Shown: positions 21,686-30,409, numbered from the stretch's first letter. The stretch: DNA of 64,000 nt from GCF_988242995.1 NZ_OZ547043.1; one strand, 5' to 3'. Translations and numbers: made by a program. Notes: generated by a model from the sequence alone, not told the origin.

Positions 21686-22540
21686 TTACGCTTCAATGGC
21701 AGCGCGAAGTTTTTTCATCGCGTTCTTTTCCAGCTGGCGCACACGCTCAGCGGAAACACCGTAACGGTCAGCCAGTTCCTGCAACGTGGACTTGTTGTCT
21801 TCATCCAGCCAGCGCGCGCGGATGATATCCTGGCTACGCTCGTCCAGACCTTGCATCGCGTCGGTCAGACGGTTTGCCGCCTGCTCTTCCCAGTTATCAT
21901 CTTCGATGCCGTCAGCAAAGTTAGATGATTTATCCTGCAGATAGAGCACCGGAGCCATCGGCTGGCTGTCGGAATCGTCGTCGGAAGACAGGTCAAAGGT
22001 CATGTCCTGTGCCGCCATACGCGACTCCATCTCACGTACGTCTTTGCTGGTTACGCCCAGTTCACGGGCCACCATTTCAACTTCATCCTGATTAAACCAG
22101 CCCAGACGCTGCTTGGTTTTACGCAGGTTGAAGAACAGTTTGCGCTGCGCTTTGGTGGTCGCAACTTTGACGATACGCCAGTTACGCAGAACGTATTCGT
22201 GGATCTCTGCTTTGATCCAGTGGACGGCGAAGGAGACCAGGCGCACACCCACTTCCGGGTTAAAACGGCGCACTGCTTTCATCAGGCCGATGTTACCTTC
22301 CTGAATCAAATCCGCCTGTGGCAGGCCATAGCCCGCATAATTACGAGCAATATGAACAACAAACCGCAGGTGAGACAGGATCAGCGTTTTAGCTGCTTCC
22401 AGATCGCCATGGTAATGCAGCTTTTCAGCCAGCGCCCGCTCCTCGTCAGCCGACAACATCGGCCACGCGTTAGCTGCCCGGATGTAAGAATCCAGGTTGC
22501 CAACTGGGGCTAAAGCTAAACTTTGCATTTTGTCAGTCAT
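21686..22540 (-). CDS. rpoH: RNA polymerase heat-shock sigma factor sigma-32
   Basis: 284 aa; sigma-70 family regions; full-length match to remembered RpoH ([24 protein letters not shown]). Confidence 0.97.
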
Positions 22541-22632
22541 TCAAATCCTCTCAATCGATATCTTCTGGCGCTTCAGTGGTAGCAACAACTGTGCCAGAGC
22601 TTAAGAGCAACGAGGTTATCATTCACTGTTTT

Positions 22633-22660
22633 ATCAGACCGTGATTTTATCCACAAGTTC
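22633..22660 (-). promoter_or_regulatory. candidate sigma-E-dependent rpoH promoter (P3)
   Basis: On the minus strand: GAACTT - 16 nt - TCTGAT, matching the sigma-E consensus, in the rpoH upstream region. Confidence 0.5.
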
Positions 22661-22784
22661 AATGCAAGCTTGTGAATAAATTACGCACAAAATATGACAT
22701 AGAGATGAAATACCGGGAAGAGACAACGGGGTCTCTTTCCCTGCTACGGAACCCATTGCAGGGAAAGAGTATAACACGCTTTTA

Positions 22785-23843
22785 TTATTCAGGCGTAAAG
22801 TGGCGTAAATGTTGTACCGTGGCAAGCCACGCTGCCACCCAGCCAATCATCGAGCATACCAGCAGCAACAGCAGGCATTCATCGAACGATAAGCCATTGA
22901 TATCAAACTTCGTTCCGAAAACCTGTGCCACTTCTGCAACCGCCGATGACAAACGCAGTACCAGAATTTCTGACAAAATTAATGACAGCAATGCGCCAGA
23001 AAATCCCAGCAATGCGCCTCCGTACAGGAACGGGCGCAGGATGAAACCATCCGTCGCACCAATCAGTTTTTGTACGTTAATGGAGTCACGGCGAGCAAAG
23101 ATGCTCAGACGCACACTGTTGCCGATGACGAGGAACACTGCTGCCACCATCAACACGCCGATCATCGCGGAAACGCGCCCGACCAGCCCGGTCAACGCCG
23201 CCAGACGGGCAAACCAGCTGTCATCCATCCGCACTTCGTCAATGCCGTTGATCTGGGTGATACGATCACGCAGCGTATTCAGTGATTCCGTCCCCTGAAA
23301 ATCGAGTTTCGGGATCACCACCGCCACTGCCGGAAGCGGGTTTTCTTCCAGCATATCCAGCGCGCCGCCAAAACCAGACCAGTTACGGAACTCGCCCAGC
23401 GCGTCTTCACGAGAAAGATAGTTCACTTTCTCTACGCCCTGCTCGGCCTGTAGCTGTGCCACCACGCCCGCAGCGGCGTCATCGTCCAGCGTTTTTTGCA
23501 GATAAACAGTGATTTGCGGTGACGGATAATACTGCGTCGCCGCCTGGTTAACGTTTTTGTACACCATATAACAGACGCTGGGCAGCGTCAGGGAGATGGC
23601 GATAACCATCACCGTTAAAAACGTGGCGAACGGTTTGCTTTTCAGATCCTGCAATGCGCCGTGGAAGGCATAGCGCACCTGTTCGTTGAAAACGTTGGTT
23701 TTGCGATTTACCGGTTTTGGCGAGGATTTCGCGCGTTTCGGTGCGTTACGACCGCCGTCGCCTGAGCCGCCGACCGATTTACGGAAGCGATCCAGACGCC
23801 CGCCAAACTGCCGAATATGATTGATTGCATCGCGCTTATTCAT
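22785..23843 (-). CDS. ftsX: cell division ABC-transporter-like permease
   Basis: Start refined to [15 protein letters not shown]; 352 aa; overlaps ftsE end. Confidence 0.93.
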
Positions 23844-24504
23844 GGCCCACGCCTCCATGCAAGTGACCATCGCTCAGGGTGAGCATGCGATAGGAACGCC
23901 GCGAAATCAGGTTGATGTCGTGCGTTGCCATCAATACGGTTACCCCAACGCGGTTAAACTCTTCAAACAGACGTAAAATGCCTTCCGACAACGCGTCGTC
24001 CAGGTTACCAGTCGGTTCGTCCGCCAGCAGTACCGCGGGCTTGTTCACCACCGCGCGGGCAATGCCAACACGCTGTTGTTCACCGCCGGAAAGCTGAATA
24101 GGGAAGTTCTTCGCTTTGTCCAGTAGCCCGACTTTATCCAGCGCCGCCGACACCCGGCGACGAATATCGTCACCGCTGGCACCGGCGATAATCAGCGGGA
24201 TCGCCACGTTATCGTAGACAGTACGGTCCATCAGTAGATGGTGATCCTGGAAAATCATGCCAATCTGGCGGCGCAGAAACGGAACTTCACGGTTTTTCAG
24301 ACGCGTGATGTCATGGCCGCTAAACCAGATTTTCCCGGCGCTGGGCCGCTCAATCCCACAGATCAGCTTCAGGAGGGTACTTTTCCCTGCGCCGGAATGA
24401 CCGGTCAGAAACGCCATCTCACCCGGCTGCATATGGAACGTAACGCCCTGCAGCGCCTGTCTCCCACCGAGATAAGCCTTGCTGACATGTTCAAAGCGAA
24501 TCAT
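23836..24504 (-). CDS. ftsE: cell division ATP-binding protein
   Basis: 222 aa; Walker [10 protein letters not shown], signature LSGGEQQR. Confidence 0.96.
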
Positions 24505-24506
24505 TG

Positions 24507-26003
24507 TTAATCCTCTCGGGCAAAAAGTGCCTCTATAAAGTCGTCCGCCTTAAACGGACGCAAATCCTCAATACGTTCGCCGACACCAATGTAGCGGATA
24601 GGGATACCAAACTGGTCAGCCACCGAGAAAATTACCCCGCCTTTCGCCGTGCCGTCCAGTTTCGTTAGCGTGATGCCGGTTAAGCCAACGGCTTCATGGA
24701 ACAGTTTGGCCTGGCTTACCGCGTTCTGCCCGGTGCTGGCATCGATAGTCAGCATAACTTCATGCGGCGCTTCAACGTCGAGTTTCTTCATCACGCGGAC
24801 GATTTTCTTCAACTCTTCCATCAGGTGCGATTTGTTCTGCAGGCGTCCGGCGGTATCGGCAATCAGGACGTCGATATTACGCGCTTTAGCGGCCTGAATG
24901 GCGTCGAAGATAACAGAGGCGGAATCCGCACCGGTATGCTGGGCAATCACCGGAATATTGTTGCGCTGACCCCAGACCTGAAGCTGTTCAACCGCTGCCG
25001 CACGGAAAGTATCGCCCGCCGCCAGCATCACCGATTTACCCTGCTGCTCAAACTGACGTGCCAGCTTACCAATCGTCGTGGTTTTACCCACACCGTTGAC
25101 GCCCACCATCAGGATCACGAACGGCGTTTTACCTTCAACATTCAGCGGCTCATCGACTTTCGCCAGAATCTCGCCCATCTCTTCTTTCAGCAGGCCATAG
25201 AGCGCTTCGGCATCACGAAGCTGCTTGCGGGATGCGCCTTCCGTCAGATTGGTGATAATTTTACGTGTGGTTTCCACGCCCACATCGGCGATCAACAGCT
25301 GTTCTTCCAGCTCTTCAAATAGATCATCGTCGATTTTTTTACCGCGGAACAGGCTGATAAATCCGGAACCGAGATTTTCTTTGGTTTTTAACAGGCTGCG
25401 TTTCAGGCGCGCGAAGAAACCTTCTTTGGTCGGTTTTTCCTGCTCCTGAGCGATTTCTTCCACCGGCTGCTCTTCTTCTGCCGGAGGAACCACCATCACC
25501 GCCTCTTCTGCCGCTTCGGCAGCCAGCGCCTGTGCTTCCAGCTCTTCGTCGGTGATTTCTTCTTTAGCCGCTTCTTCTTCCGCCGCTTCGACAATCTCTA
25601 CGGTTTCCGCTTCGGCCTGCCACTCTTCTGGCGAAACCTCTTCGGCGTTGACGTCCTCCGGCAACGGCAGCTCTTCACGCTCGATAGCCACTGGCTCCGG
25701 CGTTTCTTCTACGACCGGTTCCGGCTGTGCAACGACTTCCGCTTCAGGCTGCGCTTTTTCACTTTCAGCAACCTGTTCAGAGACTTCCACAACGTCGGCA
25801 GCAAAAGTTTCCGCTTCGGCCTCAGTATGCGCCTGCGGCTGCTCTTCAACGGCTTGTTCCGAAGCCTTCGCAGGCTCTTGCGCCTGAACGATTTCTTCTA
25901 CAACCGGTTGTTCATTCTGAACTTCTGTCTCTTTTTCCGGGGTCTGCTCTTTTTGACCAAAGCCCAGCCAGGAAAAAAAGCCACGTTTTTTTTCTTTCGC
26001 CAT
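24507..26003 (-). CDS. ftsY: signal recognition particle receptor
   Basis: 498 aa; acidic low-complexity N-terminal domain plus C-terminal SRP GTPase domain (GVNGVGKTTTIGKLA). Confidence 0.96.
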   Translation of the reverse strand: MAKEKKRGFFSWLGFGQKEQTPEKETEVQNEQPVVEEIVQAQEPAKASEQAVEEQPQAHTEAEAETFAADVVEVSEQVAESEKAQPEAEVVAQPEPVVEETPEPVAIEREELPLPEDVNAEEVSPEEWQAEAETVEIVEAAEEEAAKEEITDEELEAQALAAEAAEEAVMVVPPAEEEQPVEEIAQEQEKPTKEGFFARLKRSLLKTKENLGSGFISLFRGKKIDDDLFEELEEQLLIADVGVETTRKIITNLTEGASRKQLRDAEALYGLLKEEMGEILAKVDEPLNVEGKTPFVILMVGVNGVGKTTTIGKLARQFEQQGKSVMLAAGDTFRAAAVEQLQVWGQRNNIPVIAQHTGADSASVIFDAIQAAKARNIDVLIADTAGRLQNKSHLMEELKKIVRVMKKLDVEAPHEVMLTIDASTGQNAVSQAKLFHEAVGLTGITLTKLDGTAKGGVIFSVADQFGIPIRYIGVGERIEDLRPFKADDFIEALFARED

Positions 26004-26152
26004 TTGCGACTACACTCCTCGCTGTTGCTTCATGGCACAGCGTTAACGCTATGTACATAGCAGCTAAAAAAATGATGAAATAGTCTATCACTTAACTTAA
26101 TTCACATCACCGCCTGCAAGTATGTGTTATCTGGCGGATTGAGCAATTTATC

Positions 26153-26749
26153 ATGAAAAAACCGAATCATTCCGGCAGCGGCCAAATCCGCATTATTGGC
26201 GGGCAGTGGCGAGGCCGTAAACTCCCGGTTCCTGATAGCCCAGGTCTGCGCCCCACCACCGACCGCGTACGCGAAACGTTGTTTAACTGGCTGGCTCCGG
26301 TCATTGTTGACGCCCAATGTCTGGATTGCTTCGCCGGGAGCGGCGCGCTGGGGTTGGAAGCGTTATCGCGCTACGCTGCGGGGGCCACGTTGATTGAGAT
26401 GGATCGTGCAGTTTCTCAGCAGTTAATTAAGAATCTGGCGACACTAAAAGCAGGCAATGCACGCGTGGTGAACAGCAACGCGATGTCATTCCTGGCGCAA
26501 AAAGGCACACCGCATAATATCGTGTTTGTCGATCCACCGTTCCGCCGTGGCTTGTTAGAAGAGACGATAAATTTACTGGAAGATAACGGCTGGCTGGCTG
26601 ACGAAGCCCTGATTTATGTCGAAAGCGAAGTCGAAAACGGTCTGCCCACCGTTCCGGCGAACTGGTCATTACATCGGGAAAAAGTGGCGGGTCAGGTGGC
26701 TTATCGGCTGTATCAACGCGAAGCACAAGGAGAAAGTGATGCTGATTAA
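26153..26749 (+). CDS. rsmD: 16S rRNA m2G966 methyltransferase
   Basis: 198 aa; SAM-binding motif (LDCFAGSGALGLEA) and DPPF motif (VFVDPPF). Confidence 0.93.
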   Translation: MKKPNHSGSGQIRIIGGQWRGRKLPVPDSPGLRPTTDRVRETLFNWLAPVIVDAQCLDCFAGSGALGLEALSRYAAGATLIEMDRAVSQQLIKNLATLKAGNARVVNSNAMSFLAQKGTPHNIVFVDPPFRRGLLEETINLLEDNGWLADEALIYVESEVENGLPTVPANWSLHREKVAGQVAYRLYQREAQGESDAD

Positions 26750-27008
26750 TATTGGTCGTTTGTTAATGCTCTGTGTTTGGGGATTTTTAATCCTCAACCT
26801 GGTGCATCCCTTCCCGCGTCCGCTGAATATTTTCGTTAACGTGGCGCTGATTTTTACCGTGCTGATGCATGGTATGCAACTGGCGCTATTGAAATCCACT
26901 TTACCGAAAGATGGCCCGCAGATGACCACCGCCGAAAAGGTGCGGATTTTCCTTTTCGGCGTGTTTGAACTGCTGGTCTGGCAGAAGAAATTTAAAGTTA
27001 AAAAATAA
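26739..27008 (+). CDS. yhhL: small inner membrane protein (DUF1145)
   Basis: 89 aa from internal ATG (MLINIGRLLMLCVWGF) of ORF 26616-27008; overlaps rsmD 3' end by 11 nt. Confidence 0.8.
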   Translation: MLINIGRLLMLCVWGFLILNLVHPFPRPLNIFVNVALIFTVLMHGMQLALLKSTLPKDGPQMTTAEKVRIFLFGVFELLVWQKKFKVKK

Positions 27009-27010
27009 CC

Positions 27011-27370
27011 TTATTGTTCGCCAACAAAGCTAACAAAGCGCGTTCCTTTATAGCTCAGCGTACCTTTATCGCCCACTGTCAGGGCGTGGTACTGCTGGGC
27101 GTCGAGGCGAAACGTCTGCTCCATTCCTCCGCTTTGCGGTTTGAAGCTTGCCTCATAGCGCATACTGGTGCCTGCCGGAGTTACTTCCTGCTGGCGCGAA
27201 CGGCGATCGTTAATCGGTTTTTCCCGCTTGTTGCTCACCACCACCAGCTTTTGCTGGAGCGGTGCCATATCATTATCAGCTTTTTCCCGTCGTTGTTGCA
27301 TAAAACGAAACGATGCGGCGACGATGATTAAGCCAATGATAACAATAAAGAAAAGAGGTGGTTTGCTCAT
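27011..27370 (-). CDS. yhhM: uncharacterised membrane-anchored protein
   Basis: 119 aa with N-terminal TM helix (MSKPPLFFIVIIGLIIVAASF); K-12 synteny. Confidence 0.85.
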   Translation of the reverse strand: MSKPPLFFIVIIGLIIVAASFRFMQQRREKADNDMAPLQQKLVVVSNKREKPINDRRSRQQEVTPAGTSMRYEASFKPQSGGMEQTFRLDAQQYHALTVGDKGTLSYKGTRFVSFVGEQ

Positions 27371-27510
27371 CTTTATCCCTCATCGGAAAATGCGGAATTA
27401 AGCATACCCTGCCAGTTATGGTGTTGTCATCCGTCCACCCTCGCCACTAAACTGGAAGCAAGACCGTAGGCATTCCGCTTACGAAAAAATAACGAATTCA
27501 AGGAACTAAG

Positions 27511-28137
27511 ATGCTTTGGTCGTTTATCGCTGTCTGTCTTTCCGCATGGCTATCTGTGGATGCATCGTATCGTGGGCCAACCTGGCAACGCTGGGTGTTT
27601 AAACCGTTAACCCTTCTTCTCCTGCTGTTACTGGCCTGGCAAGCGCCGATGTTCGACGCCATTAGCTATCTGGTGCTGGCGGGGCTGTGCGCCTCACTGC
27701 TGGGCGATGCGCTAACCCTGTTGCCACGTCAACGTCTGATGTACGCCATCGGCGCGTTTTTCCTCTCGCACCTGCTGTACACCATCTATTTCGCCAGTCA
27801 GATGACGCTCTCTTTCTTCTGGCCTCTGCCACTGGTGTTGCTGGTTCTGGGCGCGCTGTTACTGGCGATTATCTGGACGCGGCTGGAAGAGTATCGTTGG
27901 CCTATCTGCACGTTTATCGGCATGACGCTGGTGATGGTGTGGCTGGCAGGTGAACTGTGCTTCTTCCGTCCGACCGCTCCGGCGCTCTCTGCGTTTGTTG
28001 GCGCTTCGTTGCTGTTTATCAGTAACTTTGTCTGGCTGGGGAGCCACTATCGCCGACGCTTCCGTGCGGATAACGCGATTGCTGCGGCCTGCTACTTTGC
28101 CGGTCACTTCCTGATCGTCCGCTCGCTGTATCTCTGA
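27511..28137 (+). CDS. yhhN: YhhN-family integral membrane protein
   Basis: 208 aa polytopic membrane protein; K-12 synteny. Confidence 0.88.
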
Positions 28138-28142
28138 TAAAA

Positions 28143-28177
28143 CTTGACTCTGGAGTCGACTCCAGAGTGTATCCTTC
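28143..28177 (+). promoter_or_regulatory. zntA promoter with ZntR (MerR-type) operator
   Basis: TTGACT -35, 20-bp spacer containing perfect palindrome actctggagtcgactccagagt, then TATCCT -10; classic MerR-family long-spacer promoter. Confidence 0.8.
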
Positions 28178-28210
28178 GGTTAATGAGAAAAAACTTAACC
28201 GGAGGATGCC

Positions 28211-30409
28211 ATGTCGACTCCTGACAATCACGGCAAGAAAGCCCCTCAATTTGCTGCGTTCAAACCGCTAACCACGGTACAGAACGCCAACGACTGTTGC
28301 TGCGACGGCGCATGTTCCAGCACGCCAACGCTCTCTGAAAACGTCTCCGGCACCCGCTATAGCTGGAAAGTCAGCGGCATGGACTGCGCCGCCTGTGCGC
28401 GCAAGGTAGAAAATGCCGTGCGCCAGCTTGCAGGCGTGAATCAGGTGCAGGTGTTGTTCGCCACCGAAAAACTGGTGGTCGATGCCGACAATGACATCCG
28501 TGCCCAGGTTGAATCTGCGGTGCAAAAAGCGGGCTATTCCCTGCGCGATGAACAGGCCGCCGACGAACCGCAAACATCACGCCTGAAAGAGAATTTGCCG
28601 CTGATTACGCTAATCGTGATGATGGCAATCAGCTGGGGTCTGGAGCAGTTTAATCATCCGTTCGGGCAACTGGCGTTTATCGCGACCACGCTGGTTGGGC
28701 TGTACCCGATTGCTCGTCAGGCATTACGGCTGATCAAATCCGGCAGCTACTTCGCCATTGAAACGTTAATGAGCGTAGCCGCTATTGGTGCGCTGTTTAT
28801 TGGCGCAACGGCTGAAGCTGCGATGGTGTTGCTACTGTTTTTGATTGGTGAACGACTGGAAGGCTGGGCCGCCAGCCGCGCGCGTCAGGGCGTTAGCGCG
28901 TTAATGGCGCTGAAACCAGAAACCGCCACGCGCCTGCGTAACGGTGAGCGGGAAGAGGTGGCGATTAACAGCCTGCGCCCTGGCGATGTGATTGAAGTCG
29001 CCGCAGGTGGACGTTTGCCTGCCGACGGTAAACTGCTCTCACCGTTTGCCAGTTTTGATGAAAGCGCCCTGACCGGCGAATCCATTCCGGTGGAGCGCGC
29101 AACGGGCGATAAAGTCCCTGCTGGTGCCACCAGCGTAGACCGTCTGGTAACGCTGGAAGTGCTGTCAGAACCGGGTGCCAGCGCCATTGACCGGATTCTG
29201 AAACTGATCGAAGAAGCCGAAGAGCGTCGCGCACCCATTGAGCGGTTTATCGACCGTTTCAGCCGTATCTATACGCCCGCGATTATGGCCGTCGCTCTGC
29301 TGGTGACGCTGGTGCCACCGCTGCTGTTTGCCGCCAGCTGGCAGGAGTGGATTTATAAAGGCCTGACGCTGCTGCTGATTGGCTGCCCGTGCGCGTTAGT
29401 TATCTCCACGCCCGCGGCGATTACCTCCGGGCTGGCAGCAGCAGCGCGTCGTGGGGCGTTAATTAAAGGCGGAGCGGCGCTGGAACAACTGGGTCGTGTT
29501 ACCCAGGTGGCGTTTGATAAAACCGGTACGCTGACCGTCGGTAAACCGCGCGTTACCGCGATTCATCCGGCAACGGGTATTAGTGAATCTGAACTGCTGA
29601 CACTGGCAGCGGCGGTCGAGCAAGGCGCGACGCATCCACTGGCGCAAGCCATCGTACGCGAAGCACAGGTTGCTGAACTCGCTATTCCCACCGCCGAATC
29701 ACAGCGGGCGCTGGTCGGGTCTGGCATTGAAGCGCAGGTTAACGGTGAGCGCGTATTGATTTGCGCTGCAGGGAAACATCCCGCTGATGCATTTGCTGGT
29801 TTGATTAATGAACTGGAAAGCGCCGGGCAAACAGTAGTGCTGGTAGTACGTAACGATGACGTGCTGGGTATCATTGCATTGCAGGATACTCTGCGTGCCG
29901 ATGCTGCAACTGCCATCAGTGAACTGAACGCGCTGGGAGTTAAAGGAGTGATCCTCACCGGCGATAATCCACGCGCAGCGGCGGCAATCGCCGGGGAACT
30001 GGGGCTGGAGTTTAAAGCGGGCCTGTTGCCGGAAGATAAAGTCAAAGCAGTGACCGAGCTGAATCAACATGCGCCGCTGGCGATGGTCGGTGACGGTATT
30101 AACGACGCGCCAGCGATGAAAGCCGCCGCCATCGGGATTGCAATGGGCAGTGGCACAGACGTGGCGCTGGAAACCGCCGATGCAGCATTAACCCATAACC
30201 ACCTGCGCGGCCTGGTGCAAATGATTGAACTGGCACGCGCCACTCACGCCAATATCCGCCAGAACATCACTATTGCGCTGGGGCTGAAGGGCGTTTTCCT
30301 CGTCACGACGCTGTTAGGGATGACCGGACTGTGGCTGGCAGTGCTGGCAGATACCGGTGCGACGGTGCTGGTGACGGCGAATGCGTTAAGGCTGTTGCGC
30401 AGGAAATAA
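28211..30409 (+). CDS. zntA: Zn/Cd/Pb-exporting P1B-type ATPase
   Basis: 732 aa; N-terminal metal-binding GMDCAACARK, CPC motif (IGCPCALVIS), phosphorylation motif DKTGTLT, hinge GDGINDAPA. Confidence 0.97.
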   Translation: MSTPDNHGKKAPQFAAFKPLTTVQNANDCCCDGACSSTPTLSENVSGTRYSWKVSGMDCAACARKVENAVRQLAGVNQVQVLFATEKLVVDADNDIRAQVESAVQKAGYSLRDEQAADEPQTSRLKENLPLITLIVMMAISWGLEQFNHPFGQLAFIATTLVGLYPIARQALRLIKSGSYFAIETLMSVAAIGALFIGATAEAAMVLLLFLIGERLEGWAASRARQGVSALMALKPETATRLRNGEREEVAINSLRPGDVIEVAAGGRLPADGKLLSPFASFDESALTGESIPVERATGDKVPAGATSVDRLVTLEVLSEPGASAIDRILKLIEEAEERRAPIERFIDRFSRIYTPAIMAVALLVTLVPPLLFAASWQEWIYKGLTLLLIGCPCALVISTPAAITSGLAAAARRGALIKGGAALEQLGRVTQVAFDKTGTLTVGKPRVTAIHPATGISESELLTLAAAVEQGATHPLAQAIVREAQVAELAIPTAESQRALVGSGIEAQVNGERVLICAAGKHPADAFAGLINELESAGQTVVLVVRNDDVLGIIALQDTLRADAATAISELNALGVKGVILTGDNPRAAAAIAGELGLEFKAGLLPEDKVKAVTELNQHAPLAMVGDGINDAPAMKAAAIGIAMGSGTDVALETADAALTHNHLRGLVQMIELARATHANIRQNITIALGLKGVFLVTTLLGMTGLWLAVLADTGATVLVTANALRLLRRK

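Follow-up and report, generated by a model that had tools for sequence, protein, structure and literature searches.

The 64-kb window analysed here, i.e., the whole stretch of DNA under study, carries ftsY on its minus strand as the first gene of ftsY-ftsE-ftsX. On the 3' side of ftsY, ftsE (23836-24504) and then ftsX follow on the same strand, and rsmD (26153-26749), yhhL, yhhM, yhhN and zntA lie upstream in divergent orientation. An earlier note made from the DNA had taken the region to be coding with a continuous frame, and this is borne out by a single ORF running from 26003 to 24507 with one terminal stop (Table 1). The encoded protein scored 386.2 bits with the NCBIfam FtsY model TIGR00064 (cut-off 260.7), while the Ffh model stayed under its own cut-off (233.7 against 473.2), and Pfam placed SRP54_N (PF02881) at residues 211-276 with 56 bits and the SRP54 GTPase (PF00448) at residues 294-494 with 268 bits. 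The SRP-GTPase motifs were searched in the translation with the patterns GxxGxGKT (G1), DTFR (G2), DTAGR (G3) and TKxD (G4) and are complete, i.e., GVNGVGKTT (301-309), DTFR (331-334), DTAGR (383-387) and TKLD (447-450), with core residues that do not vary in a 61-sequence FtsY alignment. The neighbours were equally well recognised by their profiles (FtsE TIGR02673, 311.7 bits; FtsX TIGR00439, 355.4; RsmD NF008157, 401.3), and the enterobacterial order ftsY-ftsE-ftsX with divergent rsmD is common to seven annotated E. coli records; in the annotated records compared, the homologous gene is labelled ftsY. Besides, the protein has full-length matches in chains 5gad_l and 2yhs_A of E. coli FtsY, and 5gad and 2yhs are the two full-length E. 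coli FtsY chains in the PDB. An identical 498-aa protein is listed as E. coli FtsY on 88 public contigs, and neither this protein nor the exact DNA was seen in the 5,426 complete genomes searched, among which the best A-region DNA match reached 99.1-99.2% identity. These results identify the gene as ftsY, encoding the SRP receptor, which contributes to ribosome docking at the membrane.

Table 1. Features of ftsY and of its A domain in the window, with residue numbers of the 498-aa protein.
Feature	Residues	Position	Strand	Basis or remark
ftsY CDS		24507..26003	minus	498 codons plus stop, single unbroken frame (ORF list, translation)
A domain	1-197	25413..26003	minus	no Pfam match, net charge -47, low AF2 pLDDT
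Basic/aromatic N-terminal segment (MAKEKKRGFFSWLG)	1-14	25962..26003	minus	net positive
Acidic low-complexity core	21-190	25434..25943	minus	composition, sliding windows
In-frame indel zone	~85-176	25476..25751	minus	alignments of E. coli/Shigella alleles
21-nt direct repeat, upstream copy		25732..25752	minus	encodes Q-P-E-A-E-V
21-nt direct repeat, downstream copy		25600..25620	minus	encodes Q-A-E-A-E-T; 81% identical to the upstream copy
8-nt direct repeat CAGAAGAG, upstream copy		25623..25630	minus	one edge of the 120-nt natural deletion in PSJ-07
8-nt direct repeat CAGAAGAG, downstream copy		25503..25510	minus	other edge of the 120-nt deletion
TRF array, 15 bp x 2.2		25557..25589	minus	sole array; score 52; TTCTTCTTCAGCCGC on the plus strand
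Predicted helix	152-164	25512..25550	minus	AF2; no other helix predicted in the core
Amphipathic helix at the A/N junction (GFFARLKRSLLKT)	195-207	25383..25421	minus	hydrophobic moment, AF2
Start of the N domain	198-235	25300..25412	minus	inside the interval of the earlier note, not part of the A domain

The compositionally biased stretch of this gene lies N-terminal to the NG domain and agrees with the published definition of the A domain (PMC4602035, PMC2928010, PMC5094494), as had been recognised from the DNA. No Pfam family matched residues 1-210 at E<=0.01, the NCBIfam FtsY model begins at residue 223 of the window protein, weak and sub-threshold FlhF matches extend back to about residue 131, and crystal constructs of E. 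coli FtsY restricted to NG begin at residue 195-202. The core consists of 31% E, 18% A, 13% V, 9% P and 9% Q, so that the earlier description as E/A/Q/V-rich is accurate, with P as common as Q. Its 56 acidic residues outweigh 6 basic ones (net charge -50), and this acidity agrees with the pI of 3.72 published for residues 15-188 (PMC5094494). Sequence entropy is 3.11 bits in the core and 3.96 bits in the NG part. Sliding windows of 40 residues show the bias from about residue 21 onwards and no longer in the window starting at 181, and residues 198-235 have an ordinary composition, with an EAQVP fraction of 0.17-0.30 and a net charge of about -2 to -4. The extent given before needs correction on two points: the limit set at 25300 corresponds to residue 235, some 38 codons into the folded N domain and past the end of the A domain at residue 197 (25413), and the A domain makes up 40% of the gene and not its first third.

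Both ends of the A domain differ from the core in character. The N-terminal segment MAKEKKRGFFSWLG is the same in K-12 as in the window, varies only by K6R among the aligned E. coli/Shigella alleles, and is without nonsynonymous change in 10 of 11 alleles. Many of the extensions in distant FtsY proteins also start with an aromatic/basic motif resembling that of E. coli (65 of 136 representatives). Residues 1-14 have been shown to bind lipids (PMC5094494, PMC4602035). At the other end, the helical hydrophobic moment within residues 1-215 reaches its maximum in residues 195-207 (GFFARLKRSLLKT; 0.70, with the peak at 196-206, compared to a mean of 0.23 in the core), a segment with a net charge of +4; AF2 puts a helix at 196-203, and the segment shows no variation among the aligned E. 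coli/Shigella alleles. It corresponds to the membrane-targeting helix that needs Phe196 (PMC2928010), and this helix, too, has been shown to bind lipids (PMC5094494). With Phe196 as its sole A-domain residue, the NG+1 construct still shows most of the lipid stimulation, and FtsY depletion is complemented by FtsY-NG+1 (PMC2928010). The published NMR, cross-linking and NG+1 mechanism thus justify the label of a membrane-targeting A domain for the end segments, but the label does not hold for the acidic core, which does not bind lipids by NMR (PMC5094494). Based on this literature, the acidic low-complexity part is a translocon-binding tether and not a lipid-binding element.

The core is predicted to be intrinsically disordered, matching published NMR (PMC5094494). 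With the 61-sequence alignment of diverse FtsY proteins as input, AF2 gave block-mean pLDDT values of 37-62 for residues 1-190, with no secondary structure except the helix at 152-164, and values of at least 87 from about residue 190. The NMR study found the A domain disordered with a transient helix at Asp152-Ala161 (PMC5094494), with which the predicted helix coincides, and this helix also overlaps the peptide 143-176 to which the SecY cross-link was mapped (PMC4602035). According to the same study, all structural models of FtsY lack the A domain (PMC5094494). The core binds the cytoplasmic loops C4/C5 of SecY (PMC4602035, PMC5094494), these loops being positively charged and the core a flexible tether (PMC5094494). 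The binding of its central acidic part to SecYEG is salt-sensitive with a Kd of 0.18 uM, and the isolated A domain has the same Kd for SecYEG as full-length FtsY (PMC5094494). The authors of that study proposed a flexible electrostatic tether that leaves the NG domain free to search for ribosome-bound SRP (PMC5094494).

The sequence of the core evolves much faster than that of its flanks. Nei-Gojobori estimates over 11 ftsY alleles gave a pooled pN/pS of 0.18 for the core, 0.023 for residues 1-20 plus 191-210, and 0.017 for NG, and in the comparison with AF10, the most divergent genome (dS about 0.5), dN/dS came to 0.145 for the core and 0.010 for NG. Taken over both estimates, the core lies at 0.15-0.18 and NG at 0.01-0.02, which amounts to amino-acid change about 10 times faster in the core. 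Variable amino-acid columns are distributed in the same way (38/170 in the core, 1/40 in residues 1-20 plus 191-210, and 5/288 in NG), and of the 5425 complete E. coli genomes with a match, 55 are at least 99% identical to the window in the A region, compared to 1599 in the NG region. On these rates, the core is relaxed yet not neutral, i.e., still under purifying selection, and the lipid-binding ends are as constrained as the GTPase. A function that depends on charge and flexibility, encoded by few codons with short direct repeats, would account for amino-acid change about 10 times faster than in NG. Before NG, 133 complete representatives at 50% identity carry extensions of 2 to 942 aa (median 172), and of the 125 extensions with at least 30 aa, 90 have a net negative charge.

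A comparison across strains, as the earlier note had suggested, was carried out and the length of FtsY does vary, from 458 to 542 aa in E. coli/Shigella. In a sample of 60 evenly spaced A-domain DNA matches from complete E. coli genomes, 39 are as long as the window allele and 18, of the K-12 type, lack 3 nt, so that two lengths account for 57 of the 60, and the other three are 9, 15 and 120 nt shorter, respectively. Alleles of 458, 493, 495, 497 and 498 aa were aligned with those of 499, 500, 501, 502, 504, 514, 529 and 542 aa that the protein searches added. In each allele aligned, the indels are all multiples of three and fall within residues ~85-176, with sizes from -40 to +44 residues, and no indels were found at either end or in NG among these E. 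coli/Shigella alleles. Alleles with a large indel are rare (1 of the 60 sampled complete genomes) and mostly come from single-contig records. A further protein of 516 aa (P0131) was not accepted as a length allele of the A domain, as its 18 extra residues are N-terminal and replace MAKE, pointing to a start that is differently called or altered.

Most of the indel junctions coincide with direct repeats, tandem units or the GAA tract. The two copies of the 21-nt direct repeat are 132 nt (44 codons) apart, and the 542-aa allele (P0001) carries a tandem duplication of precisely this length, 132 nt, with identical copies. In PSJ-07 (NZ_AP027619.1) the 120 nt between the CAGAAGAG octamers are gone, and an intact FtsY of 458 aa is annotated. 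The 514-aa allele has two additional copies of a 24-nt unit encoding QPEAEVVA, and P0033 has a 24-nt unit three times; the large insertion alleles P0033 and P0073 lie on metagenome scaffolds and may reflect assembly errors. The TRF array encodes AAEEEAAKEE and includes a GAA run that is variable between strains: it is 15 nt shorter in GN02050 (493 aa), 12 nt longer, i.e., (GAA)4, in S. flexneri P0095, and 18 nt longer in P0099, and over all alleles this GAA run/15-bp unit varies by -15, +3, +9, +12 and +18 nt. On the other hand, no junction microhomology was found at the 1-codon difference to K-12, and the small insertions of the divergent AF10 genome are not copied from adjacent sequence. From the position of the junctions we infer slippage or unequal exchange at short repeats as the mechanism in most cases. 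Our search of the open-access literature found no prior report of ftsY length polymorphism or a VNTR in E. coli, although it may still be published; the matches on length polymorphism concerned M. tuberculosis, other organisms and a general survey of low-complexity sequences. The length polymorphism of FtsY within the species is real, but unsurprising for a disordered low-complexity segment.

The variability of the core raises the question of whether it is a near-neutral low-complexity spacer, resized by slippage, that merely joins the N-terminal lipid-binding segment to NG. Many bacterial FtsY homologues lack the A domain, which is non-essential (PMC4602035), NG+1 is nearly as good in vitro and complements in vivo (PMC2928010), natural alleles that have lost 40 aa or gained 44 aa retain an intact, annotated ftsY, and the extension of the relatives spans the wide range of lengths given above. 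However, the dN/dS of the core, about 0.15, is well below 1, the net negative charge recurs in most of the divergent extensions, large indel alleles are rare in the sampled complete genomes and mostly confined to single contigs, and the isolated A domain shares its Kd for SecYEG with full-length FtsY (PMC5094494). Considering these findings, we regard a near-neutral spacer as improbable, and prefer a core that acts as a tether.

The repeat character of the DNA was evaluated independently of the strain comparison. TRF, run at a permissive minimum score of 30, reported the one array of Table 1, and an array scoring at least 52 arises in 7.7% of 300 codon-shuffled versions. The best internal match of the protein in a BLOSUM62 self-comparison scores 54, which is under the mean of 58.9 obtained with residue shuffles (P=0.73). 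Repeated 8-, 10- and 12-mers number 43, 15 and 6, compared to 4.2, 0.3 and 0.0 expected from nucleotide shuffles and 30.4, 6.5 and 1.3 from codon shuffles; the observed count was reached by none of 500 nucleotide shuffles, and against the codon shuffles it has a P of 0.05-0.07 for the core and of 0.02-0.03 for residues 1-197. GAA accounts for 38 of the 170 core codons, and in the core codon position 1 is G in 64% and position 2 is A in 46%. The repetitive look of the A-domain DNA is thus mostly due to the reuse of few codons (GAA; G at position 1, A at position 2), to which a small number of genuine direct repeats, 12-32 nt long and dispersed across the A-domain region, are added. Repeats in the A domain are mostly compositional, not a real repeat architecture, and the imperfect repeats described before amount to one array that codon shuffling also produces, with no excess of self-similarity in the protein; the tandem-repeat look that the note had also mentioned comes down mostly to codon usage plus the handful of short direct repeats. 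True tandem repeats as the organising principle were rejected, since TRF, k-mer counts and self-comparison are all weak against the shuffles.

These data also bear on a genuine VNTR-like array, in which copy number would be the relevant variable, possibly at a contingency-type locus. The A domain does show copy-number polymorphism, both in the GAA run/15-bp unit at 25557-25589, which overlaps the single 15-bp x 2.2 array and differs between strains, and in the 24-nt unit at ~25729-25752, of which P0033 has three copies. The several head-to-tail copies beyond composition that a VNTR also has are absent: the window has no multi-copy array, its single array is equalled in the stated fraction of codon shuffles, there is no periodicity at the protein level (P=0.73), and almost all evenly sampled complete genomes (57/60) share two lengths. 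Besides, all aligned variants are in frame, so that on/off switching of expression, as at a contingency locus, would not result. A genuine VNTR is thus very unlikely.

On the plus strand, ORFs are present at 25552-25887 (111 aa), 25727-26083 (118 aa) and 25827-26060 (77 aa). In 10 of 11 alleles the codon-aligned antisense frame has no stop anywhere in the A domain, the longest stop-free antisense run in P0095 being 124 codons. This open frame results from a sense strand without TTA, CTA and TCA codons, and all of 500 codon shuffles of the A domain had a fully open antisense frame of 197 codons. An overlapping antisense gene encoded by these ORFs has next to no probability, since the shuffles are equally open, constraint tracks the sense frame, the products are S/A/T-rich as a mirror of the sense bias, ftsY is the sole annotated feature there in the E. 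coli records compared, and an Rfam scan of 22500-28500 gave no match at the gathering score; we consider the ORFs artefacts. The one candidate for a structured RNA, a match to the sR32 snoRNA model at 25113-25160 with 19.8 bits against a threshold of 40, lies in NG-coding DNA and was dismissed as chance. A scan of 25300-26300 yielded a promoter-like site at 26221-26192 on the minus strand, inside the start of rsmD and upstream of ftsY, and one terminator-like site, both of which are uninformative on the A domain.

The closest known system is the A domain of K-12 FtsY (residues 1-197 of 497 aa), which has the same gene, position, neighbours and domain order as that of the window. The two proteins are 99% identical, with identical residues 1-20 and 191-210, and differ by EAQAL in the window against ET-AL in K-12 (the one additional codon of the 498-aa allele) and by V45A, T75S, A122E and A293T. 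Other bacterial FtsY proteins have the same NG core, preceded, if at all, by an extension of 2 to 942 aa that is usually acidic and often has an aromatic/basic start (MGFFSFLFGKKK), with sequences that are not alignable in the core region. The FtsY proteins of Thermotoga maritima (1vma) and Thermus aquaticus (1rj9/2q9a) begin at NG, unlike that of the window. In the COX15-CtaA-FtsY fusions, which were found in metagenomes and in a Methylococcaceae MAG and not in E. coli, an N-terminal module before NG should hold the receptor at the membrane, as the A domain does; this module is hydrophobic, uncharged, about 340-370 aa long and heme A synthase-like, whereas that of E. coli FtsY is acidic and disordered. 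In eukaryotes, the N-terminal region of SR-alpha (SRX plus a charged linker) is likewise non-GTPase and localises NG to the membrane beside the translocon. SR-alpha is anchored by its folded SRX domain on the integral membrane protein SR-beta. Unlike FtsY, it has no lipid-binding helices and no acidic disordered segment for anchoring. This parallel, drawn in part from the introduction of PMC2928010, is an analogy of role and claims no sequence relationship.

Considering the above, we are confident that the interval of the earlier note comprises the FtsY A domain, i.e., a disordered acidic tether with lipid-binding ends and length alleles, together with about 38 residues of the N domain. [quoted passage not shown] According to the literature, both end segments would bind anionic phospholipid, and the core would tether the NG GTPase near the translocon, leaving it free to search for ribosome-bound SRP. 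For its function the core would need charge and flexibility, not a particular sequence, and it may gain and lose in-frame segments by replication slippage or unequal recombination, giving rise to the length alleles. In this scheme, gene identity, composition, predicted disorder, conservation and indels come from our computations, lipid and SecY binding and dispensability from published work, and slippage from our reading of the junctions. None of our results speaks against this scheme. The biochemistry rests on K-12 FtsY, which differs from the allele of the window by 5 residues and the deletion of one codon. Under laboratory conditions cells can do without the A domain (NG+1 complements), so that it is uncertain how much this domain contributes in vivo.

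It is conceivable, though we consider it quite doubtful, that the length of the A domain is not neutral, and that lineage alleles set the reach of the tether or its affinity for SecY and are selected. If true, the GAA/15-bp tract would be a tunable evolutionary knob on co-translational targeting. Candidates are the E. coli length classes of 495, 497 and 498 aa and, in Shigella flexneri, the (GAA)3-7 series, in which the 499-aa P0039 occurs in 776 contigs and the 502-aa P0095 in 18. The dominance of two classes in 57 of the 60 genomes fits inheritance along the phylogeny equally well.

The FtsY A domain is already known from genetic, biochemical and NMR studies, and the window contributes one further FtsY allele that is itself present in public databases. 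The repeat-like look and the long antisense ORFs of such DNA are by-products of its codon composition. The value of the present findings is modest and lies in documenting the evolution of a low-complexity disordered segment inside one species, with natural deletion and duplication alleles that can be used for testing the effects of tether length. Overall, the pattern of a relaxed core, conserved ends and in-frame indels supports the charge-and-flexibility model of the A domain.

The disordered core of the A domain of FtsY (residues 21-190) holds a single AlphaFold-predicted helix (table below), and this helix lies in the same place as the transient helix Asp152-Ala161 observed by NMR. It is enclosed by the peptide 143-176 that cross-links to SecY, and the segment containing it is taken out by the natural 40-aa deletion of E. 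coli strain PSJ-07.

Coordinates of the predicted helix and of the upstream-ATG ORFs of neighbouring genes in the window
Feature	Coordinates	Extent	Annotated in E. coli records	NCBIfam match start
Sole AlphaFold-predicted helix within the disordered core of FtsY	25512-25550	residues 152-164		
ftsX ORF from the mechanical list, upstream ATG	22785-23870	361 aa	352 aa (1059 nt incl. stop)	residue 66
yhhL ORF from the mechanical list, upstream ATG	26616-27008	130 aa	89 aa (270 nt incl. stop)	residue 42

The longer ftsX and yhhL ORFs are details of ORF calling and not features. At the start of FtsY itself, a 516-aa protein from a 4.9-Mb E. coli genome (P0131; WXP39172.1) carries an 18-residue N-terminal extension, MYIALTLCHEATARSVVANGERKKRGFF..., in place of MAKE, which implies that the normal start codon has been lost or was not called; the N-terminal lipid-binding segment (residues 1-14) would be altered in this protein. 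A divergent ftsY, encoding 504 aa, was found in the record of 'Escherichia coli' isolate AF10 from a UK blood culture (genome match L006; NZ_OZ546911.1). Its DNA coding for the N and GTPase domains (NG) is 91.7% identical to that of the window, whereas the other sampled E. coli genomes reach 98-99.7%, and dS between the AF10 ftsY and that of the window is approximately 0.45-0.57. To judge from these sequence comparisons, the record probably represents a cryptic clade or another Escherichia species deposited as E. coli.

The 90%-identity protein cluster that contains the FtsY of the window, the cluster of P0015/P0121, counts 11,145 members, among them 222-aa FtsE proteins of E. coli, Citrobacter and Cedecea. 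The two proteins were presumably brought together by a bridging read-through or fused ftsY-ftsE sequence, and this database quirk calls for caution when interpreting cluster sizes.

Among FtsY relatives, some proteins have very large acidic N-terminal extensions, namely those of Alysiella crassa (P0224, 1246 aa) and P0152 (1044 aa). The two extensions comprise 942 aa with a net charge of -226 and 744 aa with a net charge of -65, and no Pfam domain was matched upstream of NG in either protein. In about 20 clusters of FtsY relatives (50% identity; P0148, P0150, P0163 and 17 similar representatives), the acidic A domain is replaced by a hydrophobic N-terminal extension of approximately 340-370 aa. 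In all three members scanned with Pfam, this extension matched COX15-CtaA, heme A synthase (residues 4-310 of P0148, E 5e-70). It is followed by SRP54_N and the SRP54 GTPase domain, and the NG of the group is 55-66% identical to that of E. coli. One of these sequences comes from a Methylococcaceae MAG and the remainder from metagenomes. As gene-called, the putative COX15-CtaA-FtsY fusion would appear to be an SRP receptor with a permanent membrane anchor.
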